Source: Phoronis australis
Taxonomy: Eukaryota > Animalia > Phoronida
NCBI GenBank assembly: GCA_002633005.1
Contig: NMRA01000514.1
Span: 256,008-312,017, forward strand
Direction: 5' to 3'
Length of the DNA: 56,010 bases
Numbering within the stretch: position 1 is the first letter of the stretch; each line of letters starts with the position of its first letter. Shown here piece after piece: positions 5,729 to 43,900 of the stretch. The notes beneath the pieces were generated by a model, which was not told the DNA's origin, did not search any database, and saw only the letters and a list, made by a program, of their open reading frames with translations. The position numbers were made by a program, and so were the translations under genes.

Positions 5729-6273
5729 NNNNNNNNNNNNNNNNNNNNNNNNNNNNNNNNNNNNNNNNNNNNNNNNNNNNNNNNNNNNNNNNNNNNNNNN
5801 NNNNNNNNNNNNNNNNNNNNNNNNNNNNNNNNNNNNNNNNNNNNNNNNNNNNNNNNNNNNNNNNNNNNNNNNNNNNNNNNNNNNNNNNNNNNNNNNNNNN
5901 NNNNNNNNNNNNNNNNNNNNNNNNNNNNNNNNNNNNNNNNNNNNNNNNNNNNNNNNNNNNNNNNNNNNNNNNNNNNNNNNNNNNNNNNNNNNNNNNNNNN
6001 NNNNNNNNNNNNNNNNNNNNNNNNNNNNNNNNNNNNNNNNNNNNNNNNNNNNNNNNNNNNNNNNNNNNNNNNNNNNNNNNNNNNNNNNNNNNNNNNNNNN
6101 NNNNNNNNNNNNNNNNNNNNNNNNNNNNNNNNNNNNNNNNNNNNNNNNNNNNNNNNNNNNNNNNNNNNNNNNNNNNNNNNNNNNNNNNNNNNNNNNNNNN
6201 NNNNNNNNNNNNNNNNNNNNNNNNNNNNNNNNNNNNNNNNNNNNNNNNNNNNNNNNNNNNNNNNNNNNNNNNN
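5729..6273. other. Assembly gap (545 N)
   Basis: Run of N. Confidence 0.99.
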
Positions 6274-6569
6274 CGAGCCTCATTTGCATATATAAGTGAC
6301 ATCTGTTGGTTCAAAAAAGAGGATCATGCCCGAGTACATGCCTGGGAAGAGGCATCTTTTTAAGGGTAAAACAAGTCATGTTCAAAGCATCCTAGTGCCA
6401 TTAATATGCAGTCTTTGGGGACCAAAGTGGTGTCATTTTATAGCTGAAGAGTTAAGCTTTCGAACACAATGCTTGGATTCCTGACGACTTTAACATTTAC
6501 TTTTGAAATCACTTTTGAATATCCGTTAATATGCGCTAAAACAGTTGTCCCTTCCTGGTTATCTCTTTC

Positions 6570-7900: not shown

Positions 7901-10387
7901 TTTTATTTTTTGACGGTAACACAGTTTCGAATATGGGTATTGATAGTGATTTACCCGAATGCATACATGCAAGCCTAGTACATGTAGGTGGCTTAGCACT
8001 TCATCTAGACCGGGGTCGAGTGCCTGGCATCGAGTGCCCTAGAATGAAAGCAGTTAGCTTGTTATTGATAAAATTTGATAGGAACCGAGTCCTTTATCGT
8101 AACCCCACTTGTGTGCTTGGTCGAAGTGCGATTCCTTGAAATGTGTCGAACAAAGTGTGGTTCCCGACTGAATCGCATGTTCCAAAATGACATTCCACAC
8201 TCTCGTGCGGACGATAAACCGATGTCATTTCTGTGAAACTTTCACGTATTTTGGAAATATGAACATTGAGGGACGTTCTCATTCAAGTTGCAGTTACTAC
8301 AGCCTCCACTAACACACCTTTTAATATCTACAAACATAGTTCTCTGCCAACTTTCCTCCAAACTCAGTTTCACACTGGTGAAAACTACAATGACTGACTG
8401 TCTTCCAGCCACTACATACATTTACATGTACATGTACAACAACAATCATAGAAAAAATACGAAAATGTTTTGCTCGTTTCCTAGCAACAGCTATAATAAA
8501 GGCTACTAAAACCCTTCAGATGTATTAATAAAAATGTTTTGAGACACAGGGTCTTGGTTGAAGCTTATTATGGACAGTGAAATAATGAAATTTAATCTAT
8601 ATTGCCTGCAGAAGGTGGTGACCATGACACTCTGCACCAACCTATACTTTGAATTTTTTGTACCACAAAGATAATAAGACCTCGACACCAGAAAGAAAAG
8701 TAAGAGCGATATTTTTACTATTCATGTAAAGTTGTCTTACTACACATACTGATATGCAACCCAGTTTTAATTGATTAGCAACAGGGACATCAGCACTCTT
8801 TTAAAGAAAAATGTAGTCTACCAGTCTTAGACCCGATGTGAGGTGGTCTGTCACCATCGAAGGAAAATGAAATAGGTCAACTCCAATGAATTGAAGGTGA
8901 AAAGAGCCACGTTTCTGTTGCTAATTAGAGTCGTGGAAACTAAAGTAAAGTAGACATGTTGCTCAAAGTGTATAACCTAAGAGTGATTTGTTTCACTGAA
9001 TTCCAACCAAAAGGGATTTTTCGGATGCCGGTGTCTTTTTTAACGTTACATCATTTATTCATATCACTTCCGACGACGCGGCATCTCTACACCTCTGCAC
9101 AATTTCCAAGGGAAACACCGGTGCTTTTATTTAGTTAGCCCAAATCTCCAATATTCTTAATCGAGGTGCAATTTCTTGCTTGCTCCTGCACCTACCAAAC
9201 CTCAAGACATCAAGGTACTGTTTCATTATCTTTGGCAATACACACAGTTCCTCTTTCATAAAAAAGTTTGCTAATTGCACGTCACCCGTTTCCGTATATG
9301 TACATTCAAATGCTTAGACCTGTCCGTATGCACAGCAATACGTTCGTGAAAGACAAAATTGCTCAAACATTTTAGATGTTCATGTACTAGCAACTGCCGT
9401 CTATCGTAAAGTCGTTTGTGTTTCACGATTTTAAAATTAAAGTCTAAAATTTTCCAGCATTTCTGGACAGTACACAGATACATGTAGCTATTTTTCAATC
9501 CAGATGAAAGTCTGAATTACCGGATTTATTGAACTGATTTGAATGTTTCAAATAACAATCTTCGATTCTCCAATCAAGCGTACATGTATTTTCGATGCAT
9601 CAAAATAAGTTCCCTACCATTTTCCCTAGTTGTCGTTTTATTGCTCAGGCACGTTCGTGCAACTTCCAGGCTGCCGAACAACGCGTTCAAAGCACTTGTG
9701 GCTACTTCAGTTACAGCAAATTTAGTTTTTGGTTCTATAAATAAACCCTAAAAACACAAAATGGATAATTTTATGTCGAGTCCACGTAAATAAAGAAACG
9801 GTGGTATTTTTACTAATGTTAGCCCACCTACTTCACTTGTGTATAAGTGCCGGCGAAACGTGGTTATGCCCTGACAAGGACATATTGAAAACACATTTTT
9901 TCACACAAGTATAACACACACGGTGTGTATAGGGGTATTGAAACATTGCAGGGTTCATTTCTTCACCAAAGATGTCGAAGTGCTCAAACGAACGAAACCT
10001 TGTGAATGCAGTTGGTGGTCGACCTTAGTGCTCCAGATACTGTATAAAGGTTTGCGTTTAAAAGTCACATATTGAGTGATGCAAATTGTTTTCAACACCG
10101 TGTGCTAAAGTTGTGGTCTCAACATCTGTAATGTTAACAAGGGACTTTGTGAGAATTGTTGAAGCTAAATGTACACGTACAACTCAATGTGCGTTCGATA
10201 GTGAAAACACTGAGAATCGGGATGTGCACGTGCAGAGTGGCACTCTAAAGAACTCTCGTGACAATATTAAGAGACTTAGGCTGTAACTGTGTATTGACAC
10301 GAAATAACAGTCTCAAAGATATTTACTGCTCAATGAATGTGACGAAAACAGTGTTTGATAGTTTTGAATGGAGATTTCACCGTGCTC

Positions 10388-11416
10388 ACAACGAAAACAC
10401 AATTCACACAAGGCATTAAAAATATGATGCTAGTTTTCAACCACATTGCCGAAGAAACTGATTGAATTATAATACAACATGTAACCACTAAGACGGTTGT
10501 CATTATATCAGGTCATTCACTTGAGGTTATAAAGTGTAACACGAATAAATATTTTAATAGCAAACATTACTCAAAAGGCGATTGCTTGTTTCACATATTT
10601 ACAAAAGGAGTTTTACAACTTCCACCTTCTCCACAGAATACATTCATTGCAAATAAGATGGGAAGTCTTATGTTCAAGAGCTCAAAATCTCACAATTTGA
10701 AACCCCCAAACTGCACTTCTCACTGTATTGTTGAAGTTCCAGCAAACTCGTCAAAATCACTACAATTCATTTTCCGTTTAAACATATAATAAATGTTTAG
10801 AATTATGACTTTGTCTCATCCTTTTCGAAAATAAGAAATCTTTTGTTCATTCGTTTAGGTTTTTGTGTTTTGTATAGTGCACACGCTGTTTTTGACGCGC
10901 TGCGTCTTGAATAATGTCGTGGTACCCGAAATAACACTGTCGTGTGAGGGGTGAACCAAACCAATGAGCTATAGCTCATTGACCAAACTTATTGGGTGGG
11001 TCCGGACTATAGTGTTTACGTAATCTTTACTTTTGTGGTGAAGATTCACAGGACCAAGCATTGTGATTTAGTCTTGTCACATTTATCCCATTGTCAACCG
11101 TCGCATCAACATTATTGAGACGAAAATTTACAACACGTACTGTGTAGTACTTGATTATAATCAAACGATTTCAATTTCTAAAAAGACTATGAGATTCGAC
11201 ACTTTTACATGGGCAGCGCAGCACTGAAAATAAGTTGGGGCAAGAGGGCCCCAGACCCCGGTGGTGCACCGCAAATAGACAATGGGTGGCGCAACTTTGA
11301 AAAAGTGGGAGCTACAACACCTCAGCCACCCATGGTGCGGCGCCCGTGAGAGAAGTTGTGAATGGGAATAGCCATTGAAAAGGAATATATGAATATTTAG
11401 ATAACCAAACATTCCA
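10388..11416 (+). repeat. ~1-kb direct duplication, copy 1 (copy 2 at ~13250-14247)
   Basis: Near-identical sequence from CAACGAAAACACAATTCACACAAGGC to AAACATTCCA; divergence is higher in the last ~300 bp. Confidence 0.92.
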
Positions 11417-11577
11417 TGCCGCCTGTTGGTTTGATCGCAAAAACAAGGAACTCTTTCATGTACTCTGTCAGGGTACATGTATATCGGATAGGTATATGCG
11501 TACACTCTAGATTATACAGGTCCATATCGATAACTTGTGATCGATAGCTTTGGCTTGCAGATAAATCTCAAGTCAAG

Positions 11578-11709
11578 TCAGGATTTATCTGATACCGAGA
11601 TGATATACCGAATTGGACCGAGTTTGCTATTACCGCACCATATTGTGATAGGACGCAAATTTGTGCGTAAACACGATTGAGACGGAACAAGTTCAAACCA
11701 TGTCGACAC
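11578..11709 (-). CDS. Possible terminal exon of the ankyrin gene (VSTWFELVPSQS...SVSDKS*)
   Basis: ctacttctcaagcag| acceptor 95 bp after the last ankyrin exon, open phase-0 frame to TGA; no homology recognised. Confidence 0.25.
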   Translation of the reverse strand: MSTWFELVPSQSCLRTNLRPITIWCGNSKLGPIRYIISVSDKS

Positions 11710-11804
11710 CTGCTTGAGAAGTAGAGTGAGTTGCACTCCATCAGTAACACTGGAGAAAGACTGTGGTAACATACTTAAGAATTTGATTGGCACACTTATC
11801 TTAC

Positions 11805-11903
11805 CGTATTGGGAGCTGTGGCATCGGCACCCTTTTTTAGAAGGAGTTCAATAACATCTAGCTTGCCACGCTTAGACGCGAAGTGCAGGGGCGTGTCGCC
11901 TTT
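11805..11903 (-). CDS. Ankyrin exon KGDTPLHFASKRGKLDVIELLLKKGADATAPNT (unique sequence, missed by the ORF track)
   Basis: ttgttgtag| acceptor, |gtaaga donor, 99 bp, close match to the ankyrin consensus. Confidence 0.88.
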
Positions 11904-14900
11904 CTACAACAAGCATTAAAACGACTGACAAACCATAAATATAATTACACTATTTCCCTGTGTTTGGTGAACAACTCGTGTAAATGAAAACAAGGTTGAC
12001 CTGATTAAAGTCAAAATGTCAAAGAATATTATCAAATCTAAAATTGAGTTCAACATGAAGCAGATATGATATCAAACATTATATGATTATTTCCATACAC
12101 ATTGTAAAAGCAAAAGGGAAATGTTTTAGAAGATTGTAACAACATTTTTGAAATGTCGTGCTCAAGATTGATAGGAAATAAAGTATGATCATATTATGGG
12201 AACCATGGTTTTATTATCAACGCACCTTTCCTTCTTTCCTAAACCTTAATAACGATATGTTATATATGACTCAAATAATGAAAGCTAACGGTGAAAAATC
12301 GAATTCAGCAGTTCCCTGAATGACACCCTATATGTACATTAACAGGGTTGATGTCCACAGTTCTTAGACATTCTTGATAATACGGAAAATGGTCAACATG
12401 CAAAACCCAAAAAACAAGCGTTGTGCAAGGCGAGCCAAACAGACGCGGTACAGGATGGAAGTATCAAGACACTAACACTTTTAAAACAGGGTTATGTAAT
12501 ACAATCACGTGACTCGTGTTCATGTCGCGGACGTTTGTTTGGAAACTTTCGGTTCGGTGTACAGTAACATAGGCGTCAATCCTTAGAACCTGAAGCACCA
12601 CCAGGGACATTTTTTTTCTATTGTGTGCCAAACGAAAACCACATAGTTATCCATAGGCGTTCTGTTGACACCTGATGGACCGTCGGTTGACCAGACTGAT
12701 GCTGCCATGCGTTTACAATATCGATTGTTGTCGCGTCAGAACGTTGGTTTGCATCTTAACAATACATGTACCTGAATCAAATATCAAGCGAAGATCGGTC
12801 TATACCCCGCCAACTGAATTCGGTCAACTTTTTGTCGCAGTGAGAATAGCCATCAGAAATCAATCTCTTGCGTTTCAGTAATACTTAATATGCACTCAGA
12901 TTTCAACTGACATTTATTCGACCACCTGAGCATACACTGTATGCAGTATATTTATTGAATACATTGCAATGAACATTACTCCTAAAGAGGAACAATCAGA
13001 ACGAACATGTTTAAGACCAGAAACATGTAAAGCATTGCAGATCAGTGGAATGCGACGAGTAACCAGGCACATGCTTCTATATCTGCTGTTTGGAAATACG
13101 GACATTTTCAAACTGAGGTGGGTCACATATACACGCATGCCTGGAGTTACATTTGCTAGCGCGGGTAGATATCTTGTGTATAAGTAGATGTGTTTTTTTG
13201 TGTTTCGTAACCATTTAACTCAACGCAAGGTTGTAAATACGATGAGATACAACGAAAACACAATTCACACAAGGCATTAAAAATATGATGCTAGTTTTCA
13301 ACCACATTGCCGAAGAAACTGATTGAATTATAATACAACATGTAACCAATAAGACGGTTGTCATTATATCAGGTTATTCACTTGAGGTTATAAAGTGTAA
13401 CACGAATAAATATTTTAATAGCAAACATTACTCAAAAGGCGATTGCCTGTTTCACATATTTACCAAAGGAGTTTTACAACTTCCACCTTCTCCACAGAAT
13501 ACATTCATTGCAAATATGATGGGAAGTCTTATGTTCAAGAGCTCAAAATCTCACAATTTGAAACCCCCAAACTGCACTTCTTACTGTATTGTTGAAGTTC
13601 CAGCAAACTCGCCAAAATCACTACGATTCATTTTCCGTTTAAACATATAATAAATGTTTTGAATTATGACTTTGTCTCATCCTTTTCGAAAATAAGAAAT
13701 CTTTTGTTCATTCGTTTAGGTTTTTGTGTTTTGTATAGTGCACACGCTGTTTTTGACGCGCTGCGTCTTGAATAATGTCGTGGTACCCGAAATAAGATTG
13801 TCGTGTGAGGGGTGAACCAAACTCATTGGGTGGGTCCAGACTATAGCGTTTACGTAATATTTACTTTTGTGGTGAAGATCCGCAAGACCACGCATTGTGA
13901 TTTAGTCTTGTCACTTTCATCCCGTTGTCAACCGTCACATCAACATTTTTGAGACGAAAATTCACAACTCGTACAGTGTAGTACTTGATTATGATCAAAC
14001 GAGTTCAATTTCTAAAAAGACGATGAGATTCGACACTTTCCCATGGGCGGCGCAGTACTGAAAAACGTGGGGGCAAATGGGCCCCAGACCCCTGTGGTGC
14101 ACCGCAAATAGACCATGGGGGCGCAACTTTGAAAAAGTGGGTGCAACAGCACACCAGCCACCCTTGATGCGGGGCCCGTGAGATTTTGTGAATGGGAATA
14201 GCCATTGAAAAGGAATATAGGAATATTTTGATAATCAAACATTCCAAATTATAGTTAATAACCAAAAAGAACGAGTCTGGTTGACCCTGATGATGACATC
14301 TATTTTGTGTGAGAATCAGTTTGTATTTCAGCATGAAAGGTTTGCACTTAACCAATTTGCCACCAGGTGAGTGTTTCTACTCAAAAACACGTTCAATACA
14401 TTAGGCCTATGTCTACCTGCAAGCCCTCGTGGCATTAAATTTGAAACACAGTTGGTGTACACATGTGACTACCTTTGTTGTAAAAAAGGGAAAATTTGCT
14501 AGAATAATGAATTCCTAAAAGCTTTCTCAACAATCAAATTTTAAAGACGCTGAACTGTTATATTTGTTCTTTCAGTGGACAAATTTGTCATGGGTCTATA
14601 CTGTTCACATCTACGTCACACAGAGAGGTATTGAAATGTGACAAACGTTTCCATTCCGGTCAACGTCATGATAACCCGTTTATTACGCAGTCCACATCTG
14701 ATATTTTCCCAACAACTTTTACCGTCAGACATATTTAGTCTTTGAATAATTGTTTCGAGGGATGTCGATAATTTTGTCATCGGGTAAATGATTACTTCCC
14801 ACAATAAAAACTAGCAAACTTATGCCCTGTGTAGGGGCGTGTTTCCATTATGCAGTAAGAGAACAAAAATGAAGTAATTTCGGTCAGCAATACACATAGC

Positions 14901-17900
14901 GACTCGGGTGGATCAACAGTGCGTTACGTTTTATATTTCCAGTTCAAAACTTCACCATCAGTTGCATAATTATGAAGTGGTTGACTCAACAGAGCGCGAC
15001 TACATGTACACAGACTTATTATAAACTGGAGCGAGATCTCTTCAATGCCGGTCTGATTTGATATTGTCACGTGATTGAAACGGTGACTAAATATCACAAC
15101 TCGGTGTTATATATTACAAAAGAGAGACATTCATTTCGTGTAGTTAGCGCTATGGAAATGCAAGTAAAAACCAACCCATTGTACAACTCCAGTTTTTAAT
15201 TGTTTAAAGTCGCGTGCACGTCACGTCACGCGCGGTAGAATGCAACCAGAAATGTCAACGTTTACGACAAAATCATATATTGGTGATTAATTGATTTAAA
15301 CATCGAATAATTCAGCCTAGCCACGCGTTGAACGTTCATCTGTGTTGTATAACCACTCGTTCAACCAAACGACCAGCTTGTCATTAATTACCTTATCACG
15401 GACATTCACGTTGGCCCCGTGTTGGATGAGACACTGTACGACGGCTGTATGACCCCACTCTGCTGCCCTGTGCAGCGGTGTCTGACCATCATATGTAATA
15501 TATAATGGAGATGTGTGAATGGACGATGAGCAAATTAACATCCACTGGGGAATGTGAACTTGCAAAGTGACATAAATGAATCATTACTGACCCCTCTAAG
15601 ACGCTATAATACTTGTAATGATGTCATAGTTTTAGAACAAACAACATAGCGTGTTCAGTGTTTCCAGTCTTTGAATGCACAAGCATGTAAAGCAGACGAC
15701 ATTTGACATTATTTAGCGACATTAAATTGTCAACATCAACGTCAACAAAATGTTATTTATAGTTTCAATACTCTTTTGTTTAAACAACTAGTTCAACCAA
15801 ACAACCTGTGTGTCATTACTTTCCTCATCACCTACATCTACACTGGCCTTGTTGGCCAACAGCACCCCCACAGTCTGTGTATGACCACCCTCTGCTGCCA
15901 CGTACAGCGGTGTCCGGTCCAACTATGTAATATATAATGGAGATGTGTGAAAGGACGATCAACTTAAAGAGCAAATCAACATACACGGGGGAATGTGAAC
16001 TTGTAAAGTGACTTAAATAAAACATTACTGACCCCTCTAAGACGCTACAATAATTGTGGTGGTTTTTACTGTTTTTTTAGAACGCTGCTACAATAATTGT
16101 AATGATTTTATAGGTTTAAAAAACACTACGAAGCTGGAAAATCTTTGACGGTTCTCCTACTGAAAGCAGACGACACTTCATTTGACATTGTTTAGCGACA
16201 TTAGATTGTGAAAAATATCAACAAAACGTTCCTTTATAGTTTCAATATTCTTTTGTTTAAACAACTTCAACCAAACAACCTGTGTGTCACTACTTACCTT
16301 ATCACGTACATCTACACTGGCCTCGTTGGCCAACAGCGCCCCCACAGTCTGTGTATGACCACCCTCTGCTGCCACGTACAGCGGTGTCCGGTCCAACTAT
16401 GTAATACATAATGGAGATGTGTGAAAGGACGATCAACTTAAAGAGCAAATCAACATACACGGGGGAATGTGAACTTGTAAAGTGACTTAAATAAAACATT
16501 ACTGACCCCTCTAAGACGCTACAATAATTGTGGTGGTTTTTACTGTTTTTTTTAGAACGCTGCTACAATAATTGTAATGATTTTATAGGTTTAAAAAACA
16601 CTACGAAGCTGGAAAATCTTTGACGGTTCTCCTACTGAAAGCAGACGACACTTCATTTGACATTGTTTAGCGACATTAGATTGTGAAAAATATCAACAAA
16701 ACGTTCCTTTATACTTTCAATATTCTTTTGTTTAAACAACTTCAACCAAACAACCTGTGTGTCACTACTTACCATATCACGTACATCTACACTGGCCTTG
16801 TTGGCCAACAACACCTCCACTGTGTCTGTATCACCACGCTCTGCTGCCACGTACAGCGGTGTCCGGCCAAACTATGTAATATATAATGGAGATGTGTGAA
16901 TGGACGATCAACGCTCAGAGCAATAAAACATACACGGGGCAAAGTGAACTTGTAAAGTGACACAAATTAAACATCACTGAATCCTCTAAGACGCTAAGAT
17001 ACTCGTGATGAATTTTACAGATGACTTTAAAACGTTGCTACAATACATGTAACGGTTTCATAGTTTTAGAACACACAACGGAACCTGTTCAGCGATTCCC
17101 GTCTTTTAGGACTCTTCTGCGGAAAGCAGACGATACTTAAATTGACGTTGTTTAAAAATATGAAATTGTGAAAAATATCAACCACATGTCATTCAAAGTT
17201 TTTTACAATCCTCTGTGTAAACAACAACTTCAACCAAACAACCTGTGTGTCACTACTTACCTCACCACGTACATCTACACTGGCCTCGTTGGCCAACAGC
17301 GCCCCCACAGTCTGTGTATGACCACCCTCTGCTGCCACGTACAGCGGTGTCTGGCCCAACTATGTAATACATAATGGAGATGTGTGAATGGACGATCAAC
17401 GTAAAGAGCAAATCAACATACACGGGGGAATGTGAACTTGTAAAGTGACTTGAATAAAACATTACTGACCCCTCTAAGACGCTACAATAATTGTGGTGGT
17501 TTTTACATTTTTTTAAACGCTGCTACAATACTTGTAATGATATAGTTTTAAAAAACACTACGAAGCTGGAAAATCTTTGGCGGCTCTCCTACTGAAAGCA
17601 GACGACACTTCATTTGACATTGTTTAGCGACATTAGATTGTGAAAAATATCAACAAAATGCTCCTTTATAGTTTCAATATTCTTTTGTTTAAACAACTTC
17701 AACCAAACAACCTGTGTGCCACTACTTACCTTATCACGTATATCTACACTGGCCTTGTTGGCCAACAACACCTCCACTGTGTCTGTATCACCACGCTCTG
17801 CTGCCACGTACAGTGGTGTCTGGCCAAACTACATGTATGTAATATATAATGGAGATGTGTGAATGGACGATCAACGCTCAGAGCAATAAAACATACACGG

Positions 17901-20900
17901 GGCAAAGTGAACTTGTAAAGTGACACAAATTAAACATCACTGAATCCTCTAAGACGCTAAGATACTCGTGATGAATTTTACAGATGACTTTAAAACGTTG
18001 CTACAATACATGTAACGGTTTCATAGTTTTAGAACACACAACGGAACCTGTTCAGCGATTCCCGTCTTTTAGGACTCTTCTGCGGAAAGCAGACGATACT
18101 TAAATTGACGTTGTTTAAAAATATGAAATTGTGAAAAATATCAACCACATGTCATTCAAAGTTTTTTACAATCCTCTGTGTAAACAACAACTTCAACCAA
18201 ACAACCTGTGTGTCACTACTTACCTCACCACGTACATCTACACTGGCCTCGTTGGCCAACAGCGCCCCCACAGTCTGTGTATGACCACCCTCTGCTGCCA
18301 CGTACAGCGGTGTCTGGCCCAACTATGTAATACATAATGGAGATGTGTGAATGGACGATCAACGTAAAGAGCAAATCAACATACACGGGGGAATGTGAAC
18401 TTGTAAAGTGACTTGAATAAAACATTACTGACCCCTCTAAGACGCTACAATAATTGTGGTGGTTTTTACATTTTTTTAAACGCTGCTACAATACTTGTAA
18501 TGATATAGTTTTAAAAAACACTACGAAGCTGGAAAATCTTTGACGGCTCTCCTACTGAAAGCAGACGACACTTCATTTGACATTGTTTAGCGACATTAGA
18601 TTGTGAAAAATATCAACAAAATGCTCCTTTATAGTTTCAATATTCTTTTGTTTAAACAACTTCAACCAAACAACCTGTGTGCCACTACTTACCCTATCAC
18701 GTACATCTACACTGGCTTTGTTGGCCAACAGCACCTCCACAGTCTTTGTATGACCCTGCCATGCTGCCCTTTGCAGCGGCGTCACGTCCCACTATGTAAT
18801 ATATAATGGAGATGTGTGATTGGACGATCAACGTTTAGAGCAAATTAACATACACGGCGGAATGTGAACTTGTAAAGTGACATAAATAAAACATTACTGA
18901 CCCATCTAACACGCTAAAATACGTGTGGTGGTTTTTACAGGTTTTTTAAAACGTTGCTACAATACTTGTAATGATTTTAAAGTTTTAGAACACACTACGA
19001 AGCCGATAAACTCTTGGCGGCTCTCCTACTGAAACCAGACGACACTTAATTTGACATTGTTTAGCGACATTAGATTGTGAAAATTATCAAAAAAATGTTC
19101 CTTTATAGTTTCAATATTCTTTTCTTTAAACAACTTAAACCAAACAACCTGTGTGTCACTACTTACCTCACCATGTACATCCACACAGGTCCTGTTGGCC
19201 AACAACACCTCCACTGTCTGTGTATGACCACTCGCTGCTGCCAAGTGCAGCGGTCTCTTGTCGAACTATGTAATATATAATGGAGATGTGTGAATGGACG
19301 ATCAACGTTTTGAGCTAATTAAGTATCAGTCCACGGATCCACCGACCACTGTACAGCCAACAAGCGGCAAGGTGGGGGGTCAGCCATTCAGATCCATGTT
19401 TAGTCTGATAAATCACATTAGGGATGAGAGAAAATGGGTGAAGTATGACACCACAAAGTTTGGTGGTTTAGGAGATACAAGGGAAGTGTTCTGGGGGGCA
19501 AAATGAGGCAATTTCTTGGTGTGGAATGAGTCATTTTTGACCAAATTTTCTACTCCAGTTTCTGCTTCAAACAGAATCGTTTCTGAAAAATTTTGATGTC
19601 ACATGATTGGTTCATGACCAATGTCAGTAAAAACGGCACCGACACTGCAATATCGGTTACCATGGTAACACTGGAACTGCTTCCGTGGACTCACATTTCC
19701 GTCTTGTGAAAAACCAGCAGTAAGCTGTACCCTTATAGCGAAGCTGCCCCCACGAGAAAACTAAAAATAATAACATGGGCATGTAGAAGACTCCATGCCC
19801 TTGAAATTAATACAATAAAAACTTTGTCAGCCCTTCAGGCAGGCTTGGTAATAGGTGTCTGAATTTCACTATTTTCAGACCGCGTATGTGTATTTGTCAT
19901 GTTAAACCAATCACTAGTTGTGCGCCGTTTCTACGCATTAATATGCCGTGGTATAATACAACAATTAAAACAATTGGTTTGCTTAAATGTTTTTAATTAA
20001 TTTAAGGACACTAGCATTTCCAAATAAAATATGAAATTATACTAAATGTGTTTGTCCAATTCGTCTGAATACCAAACTAAAGCTTACAATGCGTTAGTTG
20101 AATGATGGCTGACCTGAAGTGCGGGTTTGCGAATTTATCTATTTATCTGGCACTGCCAGTCGCATCGAATGTGGTATTTCCTCAAATTGCGGAGAGAAAC
20201 AACTTTGGAAACTCTTGGGAAATGCACAAGGTATAGAGCGAGACATTTGAGCACCTTATAAGAGTGCGTGGAGCTGATGTGGAGATGGAACGTGTCCTCC
20301 TGAGAAGTAGTCTGTCTCAGTGTTTGCCTCGGAGGCAGGTGTGCAGGAGCTACATAATCTACCGTATTAGATGCACTTAACCGAATCATCGTTACAACAC
20401 TCGAGATATATTGGCGTCGCCAAAGACACTGAGAACATCCACTGCACACTAGGGGAGAAATCTGACAGAGGTCTGACAAATGACCAAAGACGTTAAGTCA
20501 AGGTTCAACGTCCAACTTCGTGTGAGCTCAGGTAGGAATCACTAAACTCCAGGGTCCGACCCTGAGGATTCGTAATTGATGTGAATTTATGTTTCCGCAT
20601 TTTATTTACCATTATAGATTTTTGTTTGTAAATGGGTATATATCACAGAAATTTGAGACCCTGTTGCAGTTAGGCTGGTTTTGTTAACTTATCTTTCTGC
20701 CTGGGTTGTAAACCCATATTCTGTCCAGGAGGTAATAAGTTTTGATTTAGACCATTTACCTCTATAAACCTTTGCTCAGTTTGTTCCTTATCCAGATGGG
20801 AAGTGATTTCTGGAATTGTAGCTAATTGACAGTTTGCTATTCCTTGAGACCATGCTGTGTGTATAAAATCACACACTATTGGTGTGGTCTCTAGCAATTG

Positions 20901-23900
20901 CATATTGCCAGTTCTTTCAAAGTTCTGAAATTGCTCAAAGTGACCTGGAAGTAATACCTATTTCGTGATGGTAAAATGTCTTAATCAAAAGTTGTTTTAT
21001 GTGATTTTAGGCGAGTTTATGCCCACTTCAAATGATTTTTTGTTGCAGTACTGAAAAGTGTTGGCACATTAGCTTTGGTGGCTCCTTGTTTTTTTGGCGA
21101 ATTGACCATTTTATGGTTCCCATGGGTAATTTTGTTACTGGTTTAGTATGTATGTACAACTGTAATCGTAGGGCAATTGTAATGCAAACCATGTTGCAAA
21201 AGTATTTTTCATGACCATTTCATTGTAAAATGCTGCCTAATTGGAACCGACAAGCCAATTTTTCATTTTGTGGTGGTTAGTTTTGATAAGAACATTGATG
21301 TGGTAAATACAGCTACCTCAAGTTTGTGAAGAAGAGATTTCCAGTGTTGTCAGCGATATTGCGAAATCACTTTTTCGCAATAAGACTACATCACCTTAAA
21401 TGTAATTCCCTGACTTTATGAACTTTGTGTGATTGACTCTGTCCTGTAGCAATTATAGTGTTGAAAAGAGCTGGAAGGCAATTTTTTATTAGAGTCATAA
21501 CATTTGCACTTTTGACTGTACAGTTATTTTTGCATTGTATTCCGAAAACATATTTTGTAGTACACAAGTCTCTAGTTGGTATTTTATATTTTTTCACAAG
21601 GAATATTTTCAACTTAGATGAGTTGTGTGGGAGGTAGACAATTTTCAAATAAGATAATGAATAAAATTGTCAAACATTGTTTTATTTTTTAGATGTGTGA
21701 TCTTCCAATAAATTATTACTTTTAAAAAAACTGTGCAGAATTTGATTTTCTCTCTTTATTTGAAGGAGAATAAATCCATAAACCTGCATTGTCTAGAAAT
21801 TTTACTCAAACTACATATTACAAGGTTGGGGATTGGAATCTTAATACAACAGAGTCTGAACCCGTACCATGAGCAATACAACACAATACACGGATTAAAA
21901 ATTTGGTGTTTAGGTTCCACGGAAAGGATTCGTGTGCGCGGTAATAGTTACTAAGGTGCGTGGTCATTGTTTGTGGATACTTTGGGATTTCTCTTCTGTG
22001 GTCATCCACGGGAAACCTGGTCGCATAGAGAACAATAGATTAGCATCTTCATTGTTCCCGTTGTTATAATAAAGATATAATGAGCACTTATCGGCAACGG
22101 TCTGATGTACGCAAGGTTCTATATCCATGCGACCTGTGTTGTTCCATCCAACAATGACACAACAAAGGAAAACAATGATAGGACCGATGGGCGAAAAACA
22201 TGCGGCGAGTTGCCACGGACAGTGGTGGAGTTTGTCTTGTCATTCGATTGTTTTTAGAGAACTGCAAACCCGGTACTTCGTCAGGAAAATTTCTGCGGTC
22301 TGTTGTTTTAAGACGTGGGAAAAATTGCGGTCATGCAACCAAACTTATCATTCATTTGATATTACAATGCATTGCATGAACATTTGATCAACAGAAAATC
22401 TGACTTGAATATGTGTGAAGAAATACCCACGAGGAAATTGTAAAGTTAAACAACTGTAAATCAAAATAACCTACATTTGTCGAGTTCATGTCTAACCCTG
22501 TTCACTGTGGAGGACATAATCGGCTTTTTACAAAATGGGTCCATGTATGGTATTTAGGGGTACTGTAGCCCTAAGTGGTAAGTAGTAAAACGTTCAAAAC
22601 ATTCAGGAGGAACTAACTAGTTGCAAAATATCGAAAAACATGAAGGACAATCGGATTTTACGGTGCTCACGCATCGGTCTCAGATATATGAAAATTTCTC
22701 ATTTTAGTACATTTGAGGTACCAAAATGTATAACTAATAAACTGGCTGACAAAGTTTTTATTTTATGAAATGAAAGTAACATGTTTTGTGAACATTTTGG
22801 CTGAGTTTCATTCTCATAACAGTGGGGGCAGATTTGGTACAGCAGTGTACTGAACACAACCTCAAAATGGCATAACGGGNAACTCTAGACACTTCTGTGT
22901 ATTCATTAGTTTATATGCCCTCATGCATTAAACTTGAGTTGTTGCTAACCTGAATTTTAATTTTTGCAATCCCTAAAAATCTTGCACAGTTTTGGTGATC
23001 GGTACCTTGCATTAAATTAAAATCAATTTTTAACATATAATAATGCCACACGCGGTGGAGTGCAACCAGAAATGTCAGCGTTTACGACAAAATCACATAT
23101 TGGTGTTTAATTGATTTAAACATCGAATAATTCAGCCTAGCCACGCGTTGTACGTTCATCTTTGTTCTATAACCACTCGTTCAACCAAACTACCAGTTTG
23201 TCATTAATTACCTCATCACGGACATTCACGTTGGCGCAGTGTTGGATGAGACACTGTACGACGGCTGTATGACCCTCCCTTGCTGCCCTGTGCAGCGGTG
23301 TACAGTCATCCTATGTAATATATAATGGAGATGTGTGAATGGACGATGAGCAAATTAACATCCACGGGGGAATGCGAACTTGCAAAGTGACATGAATGAA
23401 TCATTACTGACCCCTCTAAGACGCTATAATACTTGTAATGATGTCATAGTTTTAGAACAAATAACATAGCGTGTTCAGTGTTTCCAGTCTTTGAATGCAC
23501 AAGCATGTAAAGCAGACGACATTTGACATTATTTAGCGACAATTAATATCAACAAAATGTTACTTTATAGTTTTAATATTCTTTTGTTTAAACAACTAGT
23601 TCAACCAAACAACATGTGTGTCATTACTTACCTTATCACTTACATCTACACTGGCCTCGTTGGCCAGCAGCACCTCCACTGCCTGTGTATGACCACCCTC
23701 TGCTGCCACGTACAGCGGTGTCTTGCCCAACTATGTAATATATAATGGAGATGTGCGAATGGACGTTTAGAACAAATTAACATACACGGGGGAAAGTAAA
23801 TTTGTAACGTGACATAAATAAAACATTACTGACCCCTCTAAGACACTACAATACTTGTAATGAATTGTTACAGGTGATTTTAAAACGTTGCAGTAACAAC

Positions 23901-24357
23901 AGAACATGCTGTGGACGTCAATGCAAGAAATTACTCAGCGCCTCCATAACTTCTCAGCGAAACCTCCATGTTGTGTTCATAAACATCTTTACTGGCTTCT
24001 TTTTAATATAAATTTGTAATGTTGAATGGACAAAATGAATCAAGGTGAAGCTGACAAATACGTTGTCGACGTGATTCAAACGTCACTGTTTCTTAAGACA
24101 CAAGCACTAGGTACAGATTGAGAAATACATGTGGAAATCACGAGCAATAAAATGTGTATTTACACAACATATTTTGTTAAACTTCAGATAGCTTACAACT
24201 TTTGTAGCAAAGATATTTTTGTCTTAATTCCTAAATCTCCCCAAGTAGTTTTTATTACCCAGTCTGGCACGTCCACATGGGCACCACTCTCCAGCAGCAA
24301 CCTCACCACCTCCGTTTTGCCCCGCTCTGCTGCCTCGTGTAGTGCCGTCTGGCGGTA
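11805..24357 (-). CDS. Ankyrin-repeat protein gene built from thirteen 99-bp phase-0 exons, one repeat per exon; two exons have non-canonical splice sites; termini uncertain
   Basis: Exons in transcript order: 24259-24357, 23632-23730, 23212-23310, 19167-19265, 18693-18791, 18224-18322, 17730-17828, 17261-17359, 16773-16871, 16298-16396, 15824-15922, 15392-15490, 11805-11903. Each encodes a 33-aa xGxTPLHxAAxxGHxxxVxxLLxxxAxVDxxD ankyrin unit. Confidence 0.88.
13250..14247 (+). repeat. ~1-kb direct duplication, copy 2
   Basis: Matches 10388-11416, offset ~2.86 kb. Confidence 0.92.
14820..14849 (-). pseudogene. Decayed ankyrin exon start NGNTPLHRA* with dead acceptor
   Basis: Pyrimidine tract tttttgttctcttactgcAT, then aat gga aac acg ccc cta cac agg gca TAA. 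Confidence 0.6.
15392..15490 (-). CDS. Ankyrin exon DGQTPLHRAAEWGHTAVVQCLIQHGANVNVRDK, acceptor mutated (catAT)
   Basis: Frame and donor intact; AG>AT relative to the paralogous exon 23212-23310. Confidence 0.6.
15824..15922 (-). CDS. Ankyrin exon LDRTPLYVAAEGGHTQTVGVLLANKASVDVGDE, donor mutated (GAAAGT)
   Basis: Frame and acceptor intact; GT>GA at the donor position used by sister cassettes. Confidence 0.6.
16298..16396 (-). CDS. Ankyrin exon LDRTPLYVAAEGGHTQTVGALLANEASVDVRDK
   Basis: catag| acceptor, |gtaagt donor, 99 bp. Confidence 0.85.
16773..16871 (-). CDS. Ankyrin exon FGRTPLYVAAERGDTDTVEVLLANKASVDVRDM
   Basis: catag| acceptor, |gtaagt donor, 99 bp. Confidence 0.85.
17261..17359 (-). 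CDS. Ankyrin exon LGQTPLYVAAEGGHTQTVGALLANEASVDVRGE
   Basis: catag| acceptor, |gtaagt donor, 99 bp. Confidence 0.85.
17730..17828 (-). CDS. Ankyrin exon FGQTPLYVAAERGDTDTVEVLLANKASVDIRDK
   Basis: catgtag| acceptor (6-bp insertion relative to sister units), |gtaagt donor. Confidence 0.82.
18224..18322 (-). CDS. Ankyrin exon LGQTPLYVAAEGGHTQTVGALLANEASVDVRGE
   Basis: catag| acceptor, |gtaagt donor; identical to 17261-17359. Confidence 0.85.
18693..18791 (-). CDS. Ankyrin exon WDVTPLQRAAWQGHTKTVEVLLANKASVDVRDR
   Basis: catag| acceptor, |gtaagt donor, 99 bp. Confidence 0.85.
19167..19265 (-). CDS. Ankyrin exon FDKRPLHLAAASGHTQTVEVLLANRTCVDVHGE
   Basis: catag| acceptor, |gtaagt donor, 99 bp. 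Confidence 0.82.
19328..19691. mobile_element. Putative small non-autonomous element with a 10-bp inverted repeat (AGTCCACGGA ... TCCGTGGACT)
   Basis: Starts where cassette homology stops abruptly; no TSD recognised. Confidence 0.35.
19724..22843. mobile_element. Decayed transposon-like insertion splitting the ankyrin array
   Basis: Unrelated to the cassettes; imperfect inverted ends GCTGTACC..CTGCCCCCA / TGGGGGCAG..GGTACAGC; broken Cys/His coding-like remnant near 20380-20470 (LEIYWRRQRH*EHPLH). Confidence 0.4.
23212..23310 (-). CDS. Ankyrin exon DDCTPLHRAAREGHTAVVQCLIQHCANVNVRDE
   Basis: catag| acceptor, |gtaatt donor, 99 bp. Confidence 0.85.
23632..23730 (-). CDS. Ankyrin exon LGKTPLYVAAEGGHTQAVEVLLANEASVDVSDK
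   Basis: catag| acceptor, |gtaagt donor, 99 bp. Confidence 0.85.
24259..24357 (-). CDS. Ankyrin exon YRQTALHEAAERGKTEVVRLLLESGAHVDVPDW
   Basis: ttctttctgcag| acceptor, |gtaata donor, 99 bp. Confidence 0.88.
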
Positions 24358-24448
24358 CTGCAGAAAGAATGAACAAGTTACAACAAGCTTCACAATAATT
24401 AATTTCGCCGTGAATCTTAATTACTCATCACGGAAACGTTGAAATAAC

Positions 24449-24553
24449 ACATTTGCACATGCATTTTCCAAATCTACTCTTTGATTGCCGGGTAATATAT
24501 TATAAATTACCCGGCAATCAAAGAGTAGATTTGGAAAATGCATGTGCAAATGT
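24449..24553. mobile_element. 105-bp perfect fold-back element (48-bp arms, 9-nt loop) with 6-bp TSD AATAAC
   Basis: 24449-24496 is the exact reverse complement of 24506-24553; AATAAC at 24443-24448 and 24554-24559. Confidence 0.9.
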
Positions 24554-25884
24554 AATAACTCTTGGTTGCAATGGATCACCTTTTTATGAAGAAGGTTGCG
24601 TTGCCCTTCTACTTTGTTTGCTAATATCAATAGTGAAACCAGTAATTCTCAGAGCAAATACGTGATATGTTCATTAAAATTATCGACACTTTTATCAAAG
24701 TCCTTTAGATTGGTTGTAGCTAAGATGGGCTATCGCTCTTAGTCAACATGCCCTTTATATTCACAATTAAATATCATACATGTACATGTAGTTAAGAGAC
24801 CAATTTCACGAAAGAAAACAATTCAACTATTTTTTTTCTTTTTAACTAGCTAAATAGGACGAAATTTAACTATCTTGAAACTGATTTTGACACAAAATAT
24901 TATGTAAGAGACAACAACGTTGAAGCCAAGTGTACCAAAGCTGCGATTATAGCTAAAAATTTTGTAGCCATCCGGTTCGTACTCGTTAGCAGATCTATTC
25001 GAAACCAATCCTTGTCATCCTTCTTGTCAAAATTTCTGTACAGAAAAATCAATTAATCATGCAGTTCCAATTTCGACGCAAATCCAATCTCATGTAGGCT
25101 ACCGAAACTTGAAACGACAGTGGTCTGGCCAGGCGAAGCGTTGCGTTTAAAAAGAACTTTGCCGGCCAGCTTTCACGTGTACACGCGATAAATTGATACA
25201 TTCGCCTGTTCTTGAATATATTTAAAGGGACATTTCCTTATCACAAGCCACCAATTAGAAACCATATCTAATCTTAAAAAAGTGGCTGCAATTTGAATTT
25301 GAAGACATCCGTTTGACTCCTTTTACGCGCAGGTGTTTAAAATGGTATGTTTCGACATTGATTCCAAATTTTATTCTGTAACAGAAAGTTAGAGACGATT
25401 TACCTCATTCAACATTTCGTTTTACATGGAGGGTAAAGAGGCCACATTCCCTTTCTACTTAACAGCAAAGTCGTCTTTTTAAAGAACCCGTTTTGTAAGA
25501 ATGTTGAAAAGCAAAATCTCGAATTCGTTTGATGCCACCGAAGGAGTAACACTCGCGACATGCATGATGGGGTCACGTGGCGTTTAGAGGCTAACATATA
25601 CATGTAGATACAAGGCACGTATTCCGTGATAAAGGAACAAAATCAAATCACGCGATAATGGAAACCCACACGGAATGGGTATTACATTGGAGTTTTTATA
25701 TTACAAAAAAACTAATAACTGACAACGTAATCAGCATAAGAAACTCTTCTTTTTTGAAATTTGCACTGAATTTTTTACTGGAGATTCCATCTTAATAAAT
25801 TGAACACAGAGTGATACAATTTCTGCCACCACATCGATAACATTATATGCAGTTAGGTTCAACACGTCATTTGGTTAGGAGAAC

Positions 25885-30954: not shown

Positions 30955-33900
30955 TTTTTCGCGGAATTGTTTTCCGACAAGATATTTTCAATTGTTCGAG
31001 TGGCAAAATTTAGAGAAAAAACAGCAGGAGGGTGTTTGCACTCATAGTTATTCTTTAACGAGGATGGTGACAGTCATATGGCAGGTTATCATTAGAAGAG
31101 TCGTGTGTATTTTTTAACAATATATTCATCTATTTGACAATAGTTAGTGGAAAGTACGTGGCGGATAAAGAGCATTGTTCCAGCTTTCCCGTCGTGAACT
31201 ACGCTTGTAACTAATTCGTTGAACTCGTGAAAGGGTATGTCATAGAACAGTACACCTTCATGTACAGGTACATACTTTGTTTTCTTATATTTTTATCTAT
31301 TTGAAAATATGTCATTTGAACCTCACCGTTAAGTCCGTGGATCAAAATTCAAATCCTTATCAACCTATTGCGACTTGTTTCGGGACATTTAAGGTATGTC
31401 CTATAAGGTGAATTTATTCTGAAAAGATTGAGGTCAGCATAAAATGATGTAAACTCTGAAAAGTTAACACACAGTTTTCAGAATTTTTCTCGCTTTTGCC
31501 GCAATGGAACTGCCTACATCGGGGACGAATTGAACTTGTTTTAAACATCACTGGTCGTGTTCGTTATTTGTTGTTGCGGACCCTAGAAACTGTCGTCGAC
31601 ATGAAGGGCAAAATCAAAAGCATTCCATACCATATTGATAAAAACAAACTTTTAATGATTGGTTCTCCTGACTAGGCGTCTGGCGACAACATTGGCAATC
31701 ATTGATTTTCTTAACTTGTATTTACACAAATTGTATAATGAATTGTATACGTATCACTCCGTCATGATTTTAACATATGTGTGTTTTGTAATGTATTAAT
31801 GTGGACTACAAACTAGTAGATTCGTATTATATTTGTTATTTGCTTATCTAATGTACACAATATCACCGTCTCCATCGTTTCTACGATAATTTCTGTTAAC
31901 TTGTTGCTCAAAAATATTTTAATTCGAATTAGGGATTCTAATTTGATCTAATGTATTTGTCTAAACCCATGGAAAAAATGGTTTACCATGTTCAATGTAA
32001 TATTTTTGATGATGCTTAATAGTCTGGAGGTATGACAAAAATCTTTGGATGCAAAGGATGCCCTATTTAACGGTAGGATCAGTTTTACTACATACAACAT
32101 TATGTACAACCAAACAAAGCAAAAATAAACATCTTAAACAGTAGCCTCTCAAAAAACTGTGTCAGTATTACAATTCAGGGCTAGGCGACTGCTACTTGGA
32201 CCCATCGCTAATAAAAATAAAAAATGACTTATTTAATGACAAAACACCGCGACAAAATAATCAATAATAGCATCGATCAATAAAACGATCACAAAATACT
32301 GTAATGTAAAGCATTTGTTTGAATGAAAACCATCCTTATGTTAGTGCCACCTCACCTCAAGATACAGGTGTGAAGACTATTGCATGCACGTGGAAGCCAA
32401 CAACAAACAACTGTTGGAATCTGAAACTTTGACTGCAGCCAATGGACCACGAAATGATGTAATCGACTTATCTTCTTACATGCATAAATGTTTAACATGT
32501 TAGATTGATGGCATATATAACAAATACAATATTAAACAAAGATAGTGGCTTTCAACCTTTAACGCAACAACTGTATAAAAACGATGTTTTCAAGGTTACA
32601 TTGTAGGTTGAAATCAGCAGATTGGTCATGTACTTACGAACTCGTCCAGTGGCTGGTCGACGTCCCATCTACGTTGTATAAATTGCCGTACAGTAGTCTG
32701 AGGACAGTCGTCATTTTTGATGGCTTTAAAAATCTGAAAAGAATGTCAATTAAGTATGGATTGCACATCACACAGTGTATATGTAATGTAATTATGTAGT
32801 CCTAGCAGTTTCAGATTTGCCAGTAACTCGCAAACTATTTGAACTTCCCTGCATTCGTGTTAATAGCTCATGCAGCTGGTACATGTATATGGATTGTTCC
32901 TTAACAGTGAAAAACGTAGACATAATTTTAGGGACATTAAGCCATTTTGCCGGTGTAGAAACTTCCATTCATTTTCCCCAAACCTTATTTGACTGCACAG
33001 GAAGCGAAGAGTACTGGGATTTTCCAGACGCTCGAACTATACAGCGATATTCACCACGCCAGATACATGTACATCCGAATTTCCTGAAATGTTTGATATT
33101 CTCAAATTTTTGCGTAACAGGTACAGTCGAGAAAAGAAAGACTGCGAAATACGGATAACAGACAAAATTCAAGAGAACATTTAACAACTCTGCAGCACTG
33201 CATGGTATACCTTTTGAGAAAATAGCCAATACATTGTCGTTAGGGTTTCCACATTTGCATCACAGGTAATCTAAACGCACTTGAAAACGTTTACGAAATC
33301 AATCATACATATATTTCGAAAAATGGAGAAAGATTATTAACCTAAGCTTTTGCGGAGTGTAATAACTTACTGGATTCTTAAATTCAATCATTCAATTTTG
33401 CGAATCCAAAACTATATTTTTCCAGATGCCACTCTCTGGCAAACCTGGGGGATAACAGAGACCACTTTCTCGAAACTATATATTACTTGAGAAAAATTGA
33501 TGACTTCAGAGATAACATCATTGCTGCCCATTTCCCAATATTTGAAAATATAGATGTTTTTATATTTAGGGACCCCGCCCTTTAAGGAGGTTATTGATGA
33601 CATTCAAGTGGCCACCCTTTTTGTGTTTTTATTGACAAATTCTTAAGGGGCCGCTCATGGAAAAAGGGACCAATGTTGGAATCGATTTTTCTGTTTATTG
33701 TGAAATCATGCAACCGGCTTTCATGTTGAAGGAGGTCACTCCCTGCATCGTTTTGGGACCACACGACAGGGGAATGCACTGTCACTCTTTTTCTGATGTT
33801 TAGCCTTTCATCTTTTAAGAGGTGTCAAATTTCAGACAGTACCCTCTTTCGGTGGAGCAGTCTGGGGGAATGTCTATGTCTCTCTATACATGTTAAATCC

Positions 33901-40947: not shown

Positions 40948-43900
40948 CATTTCCCCTAGTTGCCACTCTTATAACTCACCACACCAATTAAACACTCAAG
41001 CGTTGGCACCCAAATAAAATTTTTGCAAAAATGGGAGAAAACAATGAAAATTCCAGTGATTCCTATGTGAAATGAGTGTATCTGAATAGGGTCGGGGAAA
41101 ACTTTTAGGCAGTTGAGGAACAGGGTGGTATGGGTGCTTGGCCTGACAACAATGGACGCTTTTTCAGTGGGTGTTACAGCCACTGACTACTACCATAAGC
41201 GTAGATAATGTTCACTGTCTAAAAGGAAGCATGAAGCCATACTTGCAGACAGGCAGGCCTATACAGTTTTCAACATATAGTGGTTTTCTCCAACCCTGCT
41301 GAACTGTAACGTGGGAAAATCTTAGTGTGAAGCCGCTTGGACAGCGGTACGAGAGGATCTAATTGAAAATTTATTTTAGTCAACGATTATTATTATTCTC
41401 ATAAAATAAAGTGACATGCGTCTGGATCTCAGAAGGTTTGTAACGTAATATTATTCCCATAAGTTCAAAAACCACTAATTTGCATATAATGTGGACATAA
41501 TGCAGGCCGTTAAATAATCAAACTTCGATAAACATGTCTTCAGCATAAACTATCAAGCGACGGACGAGCGCCCAAACAGAAACAAAAAGTTTTGTGCCTT
41601 ATGCCTTTATTAATGTACAATTTAAACTCTTACCGTTTCCAATTCTGCCTTGTTGGCAAGTAAATTTCCCAATTTCTTGTAAGTAGCCATATCTAAGCGT
41701 GGTCCTCAGAATTAGTTGTTCTACACCCAGTGATTGTCACGCGTATAAAAATACACTGTTGGATTTTACCAGAAATTTCCCTGAGTCATTGCTAAGTAGG
41801 TTATCGACGTTATCAACAAATGGCGGGTTACGATAGGGAGAATCGAGGCCAAGTACTTGACCTATATTCTACAGCTACTGACGTCGCACGGATGGCGCGA
41901 TATGCAACTGGTCACCAGAGTTCATGAACCAGGAAATAGATGTCCCTGGCAAGTGGCCATTGAAAAGTCTCTGTGTCTGGCGTTGAATCAACTCTTTGTT
42001 TAAAAACCCTTTTTGTAATATTTATCAATAATACAAACATGTATAAGTTAAGGTGACAGTGGTCAAAATGTTTGCAAACCTCTCGCGGTTGCTCGGCCTT
42101 AGTGCGGGTGTATCCACATCAGCATGTGACTGTGCTGTCCGGCATCTAAGTTAATCAAAGAAGCCGATTTTGCAAGGCAGTTCAATCTTCTAATTTATCA
42201 GCCAACTCATTGTTCAATACTGGCCAAATTAACGTTCACCCAATAAACAATATCATTTCATAATGCAAATTCAACGATATAAGTCTTGGAGTTGTGGCAA
42301 ACACGACTGAAGATTGGTGCCCCCTGAAACCTGGTGAATGATATTGGAAAGTAATCCTTTATGTCAAAATACATGAAGAGCTTTGATAATTCACGTTTAG
42401 CTGTAATCCCCTGTACTGTTGAGATTAAACTCTCTGTCGGGTATTCTTCATTGAGAAATTTGTACCAAGCTACGTGTAATTCAAACATAAGTTTTCAAGT
42501 TGATTTTTGGATGGTGTTTTAACCCTGGGTTCACTTTGGCCTGCAAAACAAATTTATTCTACATGACATGAGTACAAATTATGAACATGTCGGGTTACCT
42601 ACATGTATAATCTAATCAAAGGCTAAAGCAAACAGTGCAGTTGGACTTCAGCATAACTGAATGACATTCATTTCAAGTTGTATGACAATCTATACCTAAG
42701 AATCGAAAAGGCGAGGTTATGAAATTGTTGGCAATTGCAATAAACTTCAATTCCCATTGTTTTTTATCAACTTTGGTTTGTTTACGAGGTTAGCATGATG
42801 GCAATGCAGAAACTTTACATAATGAGCAGCGCTAGTTGTATTTCCAACCAGAAGGTGGAGCAAAGCCCAGTCATGTCACCTTATTATTGCTATATGGAGA
42901 TTCAACCTGCGCAACCACGGTTAGTATTCAAATTTAAATCTTACAAGCATATTTGTGCTTCTTTAAAACTTACAGCAAAACGAAGAATCTCTACATTGGC
43001 TTGAATAAATGGCAACAGGAATCTGTGAGCTTTTCATTAAAGCCTACTCTACAAGCACATCGGCTAAACCAAGGAGATTTTTATCTTGTTTCAAATTCGA
43101 ACCCTGTTAACAGCATTAGGCCTATTAAAAAACAACGTAGGAATCAACAATTGGTCGGACTTCAAGACTACTTGCCCGTACTTCAAGTCTATTTGCCCGC
43201 CGTACTTCAAGAGTAGCCTGCAATAGTGCAAGCAAGTTACTTGAGGGAAATGCAAAGTCATGCAAGTCTCTATAAGATTTTATGCACATTAATACCAGAC
43301 GACGTGACTGCAATAACGCATTTTATAAACTCGATCCTTTCGTACATGTACATATACATGTAGACCTACAGTAAGAAACATGGCCGTGCCAACTTGGGGG
43401 AAGGATCTTTTCAACCGTGACGCAGCTCAACTCGATCACAGCGGTCAAATCCCACCCACCATAAAAATCATGACAATGGATGCTTTGAATTTTTAATAAA
43501 ACGAGCTAGGTCCGAAATTTCAAGTTTGAATGTCCAAAACTTTGGCCATGTAATAGTACAGCCTATTCCACCAGATAAAAATTCTAATGAGGTCATAGTC
43601 CCAACTTTCCTTATGTTTCCTGCCCGTGGCTACTTCAGCGGCCAACGGGAACTGTGGATCAAATTTTTCTCCAGATGTTCAGCAAATATCTCAAGAATAC
43701 TCAGTGGCACATACATGTTTTCAATAAGGGGTGTTAGGATTTGAGCGAATTAGAGGCGGCGTAGCGCCGAGCGCAAGGAATGTCGAGAGGAGGTTTCCCC
43801 CTCTCGTGTAAGATTTTTGTGGTCTTTAGTAGCTAATTTCGTTTTACTGGCGAAATTTTTTTTCAGTTTTTATTTTTGATCCTGTCCCGAGGGGAGTGAT

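Follow-up and report, generated by a model that had tools for sequence, protein, structure and literature searches.

A Phoronis australis array of single-repeat ankyrin exons with cassette turnover and excess change at the predicted binding face

Analysis of a 56,010-nucleotide stretch of Phoronis australis DNA (contig NMRA01000514.1, positions 256,008 to 312,017; hereafter the window, with coordinates counted from its first letter) revealed a minus-strand array of exons that each encode one ankyrin repeat. On balance, we think it probable that the array belongs to an expressed gene, that its one-repeat cassettes have undergone duplication, recombination, and loss while amino-acid change accumulated in excess on the predicted binding face, and that the product is an intracellular sensor, itself variable, for foreign or non-self proteins. 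The part of this reading that concerns the DNA itself, cassette turnover with diversifying selection, is supported by the observations below. The locus bears on the open problem of how recognition inside the cell is diversified in invertebrates, which lack adaptive immunity: it is an animal case that unites the exon-per-repeat diversification of algae with the selected ankyrin arrays of fungi, is backed by RNA, and leaves the birth and death of cassettes visible.

The ankyrin exon array and its RNA

The minus strand of the window carries 13 stop-free units of 33 codons (99 nt), each corresponding to one ankyrin repeat, with 5′ ends at 24357, 23730, 23310, 19265, 18791, 18322, 17828, 17359, 16871, 16396, 15922, 15490, and 11903. 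A preliminary description of this DNA had reported thirteen 99-bp ankyrin exons, all in phase 0/0; the 13 units hold up, but canonical AG..GT ends in phase 0 are present in only 11 of them. The other two have a GA donor (15922-15824) and an AT acceptor (15490-15392), each a single substitution relative to the sister cassettes. The Pfam PF00023 Ank cut-off of 21.1 bits was passed by both units tested (36.6 and 46.3 bits), and one further unit aligns with ankyrins and designed ankyrin repeat proteins (DARPins) in PDB. A hidden Markov model (HMM) recovered all 13 units at E ≤ 3e-17, with the next match at 0.07; having been built from these same units, it is circular and served only for finding further ones. 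No ankyrin match below E = 2 was found on the plus strand of the window, and the non-coding strand therefore holds no intact repeat exons.

Repeat comparison of the window bore out the earlier view that eleven of the units lie within duplicated exon-plus-intron cassettes: nine are of an "LLAN" type (type A) and two of a "CLIQH" type (type B), with 34 to 43 of 99 nt different between the types and 0 to 26 of 99 within type A. Reading along the minus strand, the first full ankyrin exon (unit 1, 24259..24357, identified by the HMM and by RNA splicing to both types) is followed by a type A exon starting LGK (23632..23730) and a type B exon starting DDC (23212..23310) and then, beyond a 3.7-kb interruption, by type A exons starting FDK (19167..19265, with T4 changed to R plus other framework changes), WDV (18693..18791), LGQ (18224..18322), FGQ (17730..17828), LGQ again (17261..17359), FGR (16773..16871), and LDR (16298..16396). 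The type A unit with the GA donor (15824..15922) and the type B unit with the AT acceptor (15392..15490) come next and are probably splice-dead, and the last intact ankyrin exon within the window is unit 13 (11805..11903). Cassette similarity ends on both sides of the interrupting, non-cassette stretch (19320..23046), which probably consists of repetitive elements and shows deep RNA from both strands with many loose ends.

Type A cassettes have been amplified with a period of ~475 bp. A two-cassette block of 963 bp is duplicated, 707 bp of it identical (16873-17579 and 17836-18542); the exon at 18322 is identical to that at 17359, and the array therefore holds 10 distinct cassette sequences. 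An A-B pair has also been duplicated (15227-16088 versus 23047-23891, 89.6%), and splice-site flanks are near-identical between cassettes. Of the two unique-sequence exons that had been described as bounding the array, the 3′ one, unit 13, is not unique: it has tandem copies in RNA and is flanked by decayed minus-strand sisters ~3 kb to each side. One of these, at 14760..14849 (end approximate), has no AG, a stop, and indels, and the other, at 8771..8858, has an 11-nt deletion and has lost both splice sites; set against a null of 36 ± 6 with a maximum of 54.5 in 496 windows, they score 58, barely above that maximum, and 74.5, respectively. Two 1-kb segments that are 92% identical (10388-11416 and 13249-14246), each preceded upstream by an exon or remnant of the unit-13 type, represent an older cassette series with a period of about 3 kb. 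The array is partly decaying, a point absent from the preliminary description: the two splice-dead units and the two remnants are non-coding repeat exons lying in introns. The frame is intact despite them, in agreement with the proposal that cassettes can be gained or lost without disturbing it. Chance open frames and a bacterial-style open reading frame (ORF) were considered as candidates and rejected.

Raw RNA runs X8, X9, and X10 (same species label; ~18-19% of each) and contig run X5 were mapped on 6400-26000, and X10, X5, X1, and X4 on 23040-25880; the joints read were the best 15 of 58 and the best 15 of 37. Reads in the cassette bins of X8, X9, and X10 were almost exclusively first-mate-plus, which under the usual stranded protocol means minus-strand RNA. 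Among the joints listed, cassette-to-cassette joints were present in X8, X9, X10, X5, and X4; they include 18322 or 23730 to 24259 (CT..AC) and 11902 to 15391, and joints stepping back 86-99 nt represent one cassette spliced onto another. These joints rule out a Dscam-type cluster of mutually exclusive exons. Unit 1 is spliced to type A in X5 (best fit 18322, with 5936 nt skipped) and to type B in X4, and unit 13 has minus-strand RNA cover in X8 and X10 and is joined in RNA both with a type B exon and with its own copies. Run X4 is labeled "DNA?" yet has exon-exon joints, at a depth similar to its unique-intron depth; it is probably an RNA library, the alternative being intronless genomic copies.

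At least 12 RNA exon starts (VGW, EGW, WGL, WGH, QGG, GGD, MGV, LRGM, VGV, RDR, AGL, and EGR) fall outside the window's nine. They were read by hand from joints and loose ends; for five, the source is the consensus of a loose end (agreement 0.66-0.9), and four come from X4. Two in-frame length variants were also seen, one of them a codon longer (X5) and the other shorter by two codons (28 reads in X8 and 27 in X9), and short contigs, too short for cassette counts per haplotype, carry extra cassette variants. The family is thus spliced and expressed, contrary to the lack of transcription that the preliminary description had named as a refuting outcome, and its surface variants far outnumber those in the window. 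DNA run X1 contains a copy of the unit 1 region with 25 differences in 265 nt alongside near-identical pieces; at least one second locus related to this one, or else a strongly diverged allele, therefore exists, which had likewise gone unmentioned. The X1 contig depth of ~460-530 at type A exon columns versus ~20 in unique intron is a hint that there are more type A cassettes than the nine of the window, but such depth gives no copy number and was not used as one. In X10, strong minus-strand RNA (depth ~180) covers the intron at 23731-23977, where a loose end of foreign sequence is present at 23977; it comes from a related copy whose transcription passes through the intron. Depth over unique introns in X5 is zero, and a 406-nt X5 contig (2 differences, 1 gap, depth 424) runs unspliced from unit 15922 over the intron to the dead acceptor; it fits real dead splice sites, although the bases themselves are not displayed by it. 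Read-through past 15922 reaches a stop.

Variation, recombination, and selection among cassettes

Over the 11 cassettes, positions 5, 6, 9, 10, 13, 15, 18, 21, and 28 form an invariant core, and variation peaks at positions 1, 3, 11, 12, 16, 25, 31, and 33. The variable positions of classic DARPins are 31, 33, 1, 3, 11, and 12. At the six library-equivalent positions there are 4.5 residue states versus 2.5 overall (permutation p = 7e-5), and the same clustering is found against the 24 variable positions only (p = 7e-4). The clustering of variation at binding positions, as first described, was upheld by this permutation, but positions 16 and 25, outside the set, are also highly variable. Incompatible site pairs climb with distance from 8% to 46% (0 of 5000 permutations; 7 cassettes, with 19265 excluded for its truncated flank), as would be expected if, as had been suggested, cassettes recombine or convert one another; the cassettes are recombinant mosaics.

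Comparison of site models M1a and M2a gave twice the log-likelihood difference (2dL) as 13.1 (p = 0.0014) for the 8 distinct type A sequences and 23.5 (p = 8e-6) for the 10 distinct cassettes, the identical 17359 being dropped. The ratio of nonsynonymous to synonymous rates (dN/dS, omega) was ~4.5-5 in the top class, and sites with a posterior >0.9 in the type A set were 1, 2, 3, 7, 8, 11, 12, 16, 25, 31, and 33. The ratio is thus above 1 and concentrated at predicted binding positions, and substitutions are not evenly spread, which answers the site-model check that the preliminary description had called for. Because the cassettes are mosaics, tree-free tests were added. At the six library-equivalent codons of type A, there were 18 replacement changes over 14.4 sites versus 9 synonymous changes over 24.7 sites (ratio 3.4, p = 0.0015); leaving out the splice-dead unit gave 3.2, and pooling the two cassette types gave 1.9 (p = 0.022). 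The ANK-N5C positions (PMC4308713) led to the same result, and the ten positions singled out in the preliminary description gave 2.9 (p = 0.003) for type A. Changes per column were 1.17 at binding codons versus 0.38 in 209 intron columns (0 of 100,000 draws).

Interpretation and comparison with known systems

In the mechanism that we propose, new combinations of repeats would arise mainly in the germ line, by gene conversion and by unequal crossover, both inside one locus and among a small number of related ones. A new or dead cassette would alter the surface and keep the frame, because each exon is 33 codons long and in phase 0, and new residues would be favored by selection because the ligand changes; an intracellular non-self sensor would be the most likely role. 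A further-reaching version, in which animal intracellular receptors possess a natural DARPin-like library, with interchangeable one-repeat exons that diversifying selection acts on, exchanged among loci in the germ line, further combined by exon skipping in each animal, and attached to a ROC-COR or death-domain effector, is tentative and rather unlikely; if true, it would be a counterpart among ankyrins to the diversification known from Dscam, VLR, and algal ROCO.

The closest parallels are found in algae, fungi, and designed libraries. Ectocarpus LRR-ROCO and NB-ARC-TPR genes have one repeat per exon, dead repeat exons, and positive selection (PMC3341825), and the repeat exons of brown-algal receptors are alternatively spliced (PMC11378527). 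The present array resembles these genes in its same-phase one-repeat exons, dead repeat exons in introns, and diversifying selection on the ligand face; it differs in being ankyrin rather than LRR or TPR, in belonging to an animal, in having no opposite-strand repeat exons, and in being known without its 3′ exons. The ankyrin arrays of Podospora NLRs show repeat-number polymorphism and selection on the hairpin and inner helix (PMC4986451). In Podospora anserina NLRs with internally conserved ankyrin repeats (e.g., Pa_3_8560), as here, near-identical repeats, selected hairpin and inner-helix sites, and turnover by recombination occur together (PMC4986451), whereas the repeats there are C-terminal, after NACHT, and here are apparently N-terminal, each on its own exon. 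Designed libraries (ANK-N5C, PMC4308713; DARPins, PMC8683736) likewise have an N-cap and stacked compatible repeats, and their variable positions (31, 33, 1, 3, 8, and 11 in ANK-N5C) overlap the selected sites; here positions 2, 7, 16, 25, and 32 vary too, and the likeness is an analogy only. The locus is nonetheless a natural record of the ankyrin positions varied by selection, comparable to engineered libraries. Exons covering whole repeat units are common among repeat proteins (PMC3995336), and there is thus nothing unusual in a 99-nt phase-0 layout as such. A literature search, with incomplete coverage of subscription journals and supplements, found no animal ankyrin exon-cassette system.

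As proteins, we compared N-terminal ankyrin arrays of invertebrates with ROC-COR, ZU5-like, or death domains, plus the coral ankyrin protein P0022 (Desmophyllum). Four share the pattern, namely P0002, P0006 (Branchiostoma belcheri), P0030 (a name cut at "Pty" and read as Ptychodera), and P0022, with 3.2-7.5 states at the six positions versus 1.6-3.4 elsewhere and a fixed framework. The similarity is generic (best 60-70% per repeat over all fetched proteins), and these are not orthologues.

Several points weigh against our interpretation. The surface pattern, being present in four other animal arrays, is not peculiar to this locus. The binding positions were picked after the sequences had been viewed, the tree-free ratio is anchored by just 9 synonymous changes, and the ten positions of the preliminary description give 1.5 with both cassette types (p = 0.1), which is not significant. 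The site models were run with our own script under F1x4 codon frequencies, and recombination inflates such a test. Among type A, the ratio of replacement to synonymous change (N/S) at other sites is 0.7-0.9, and framework codons are thus only weakly conserved. Two units out of 13 are splice-dead, and the framework is damaged in some (T4R, H14D), so that relaxed constraint also plays a part. The majority of RNA reads are less than 95% like the window and are therefore evidence for a variable family that is expressed, more than for this particular haplotype. Finally, no effector domain was found in the window, which lacks the 3′ exons, and no immune evidence was found either.

Relaxed constraint might even account for everything, the locus being a copy that is turning into a pseudogene by neutral tandem exon duplication, with the surface bias reflecting tolerance at exposed positions. 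Four dead or dying repeat exons, the 3.7-kb insertion, the framework N/S near 0.9, the stop on read-through after 15922, and the lack of a downstream exon in the window all accord with this, and the exactly identical 707 bp might even have arisen through over-expansion by the assembly. Tolerance alone, however, caps replacement at the neutral rate, and surface codons change ~3-fold faster than introns and synonymous sites; moreover, all 13 units are free of stops and frameshifts, and the family is spliced and expressed. We therefore regard a purely neutral origin as improbable. We are equally doubtful that combinatorial exon skipping is the main source of diversity, yielding many isoforms per genomic array as is reported of brown-algal ROCO genes and, by other logic, Dscam. 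Every exon is in phase 0/0, and the splicing of unit 1 to type A in X5 and to type B in X4 is what skipping would produce; these joints, however, come from different samples and involve exon starts that the window does not have, and alleles or paralogues are therefore an equally good explanation. Cassettes are also joined serially, not exclusively, and the near-identity of their splice-site flanks speaks against it as well. The same turnover and selection could have as their driver a conflict that does not involve pathogens, for example over allorecognition, between gametes, or in suppressing a selfish element. Sequence by itself is silent on the agent of selection, and comparable fungal repeat arrays serve allorecognition (PMC4986451); because the predicted N-terminus lacks a signal peptide, gamete recognition at the surface is disfavored, and we consider this explanation very unlikely.

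Gene model, database searches, and neighborhood

The gene begins 5′ of the interval given in the preliminary description, since an N-cap-like ankyrin exon is spliced on in RNA: an X5 contig with unit 1 (4 differences) has a 5′ loose end at 24357 that, read by hand, is the 3′ end of this exon in 29 of 30 letters. The exon (32638..32733, minus strand) is 96 nt long and in phase 0/0, with an open frame and AG/GT ends, and has no Pfam match. A first coding exon is predicted from sequence and translation at 41634..41690 on the same strand, where 57 nt separate the beginning of an ATG from a GTAAG donor in phase 0; it is hydrophilic, without a signal-peptide-like stretch, and is a prediction only, its junction being unobserved in RNA. 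At the other end, unit 13 runs on in X5 into a C-cap-like start that is absent from the window, and two RNA-derived exon starts have no window match at ≤3 mismatches. An assembly gap of 545 N lies at 5729..6273, and the C-cap and effector exons probably lie in or beyond it; the window holds the 5′ half of the gene. By analogy only, the C-terminal effector may be a ROC-COR or death domain.

On the far side of the gap, 490-5460 (plus strand) holds exons of an Est1/SMG7-like gene of nonsense-mediated decay (Pfam EST1_DNA_bind at 3145-3444). No plus-strand spliced exons of this gene were found in 6400-26000 among the joints listed. It also seems to lack its 3′ part while facing the same gap, which probably hides much sequence or is a misjoin.

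Searches for relatives recovered no family member: a profile search for longer proteins returned generic ankyrins in the best 120 of 5839, and a search for proteins of near length gave 48 matches, with a best per-repeat identity of ~70% over all fetched proteins. The N-cap exon searched against 1.84 billion representatives had 3 matches only, all spurious repeats; a search of the ESM Atlas gave no usable match, the acceptor motif had 0 matches in metagenome contigs, and Rfam gave no match. A Pfam scan of 6 upstream ORFs (43 ORFs in the list) returned EPTP only, with no NACHT or NB-ARC domain of the kind that precedes the repeats in fungal NLRs, and an exon with EPTP/EAR repeats at 48366-48854 (minus strand) belongs to a separate upstream gene.

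The 5′ introns contain a 5-kb tandem duplication (25885-30946 and 30956-36010, 87-89%); the N-cap exon lies in a part unique to one copy, and the other has 138-bp tandem repeats at 28874-29614. An inverted repeat at 24449-24553, with 52-bp perfect arms (98%), lies 90 bp upstream of unit 1. A 1-kb repeat element is present in inverted copies that are 68% alike (6974-7883 and 39375-40335). Minisatellites are found at 651-1041 (47/98 bp) and 49812-50241 (37 bp), and a TAG-rich simple repeat at 5508-5728 adjoins the gap.

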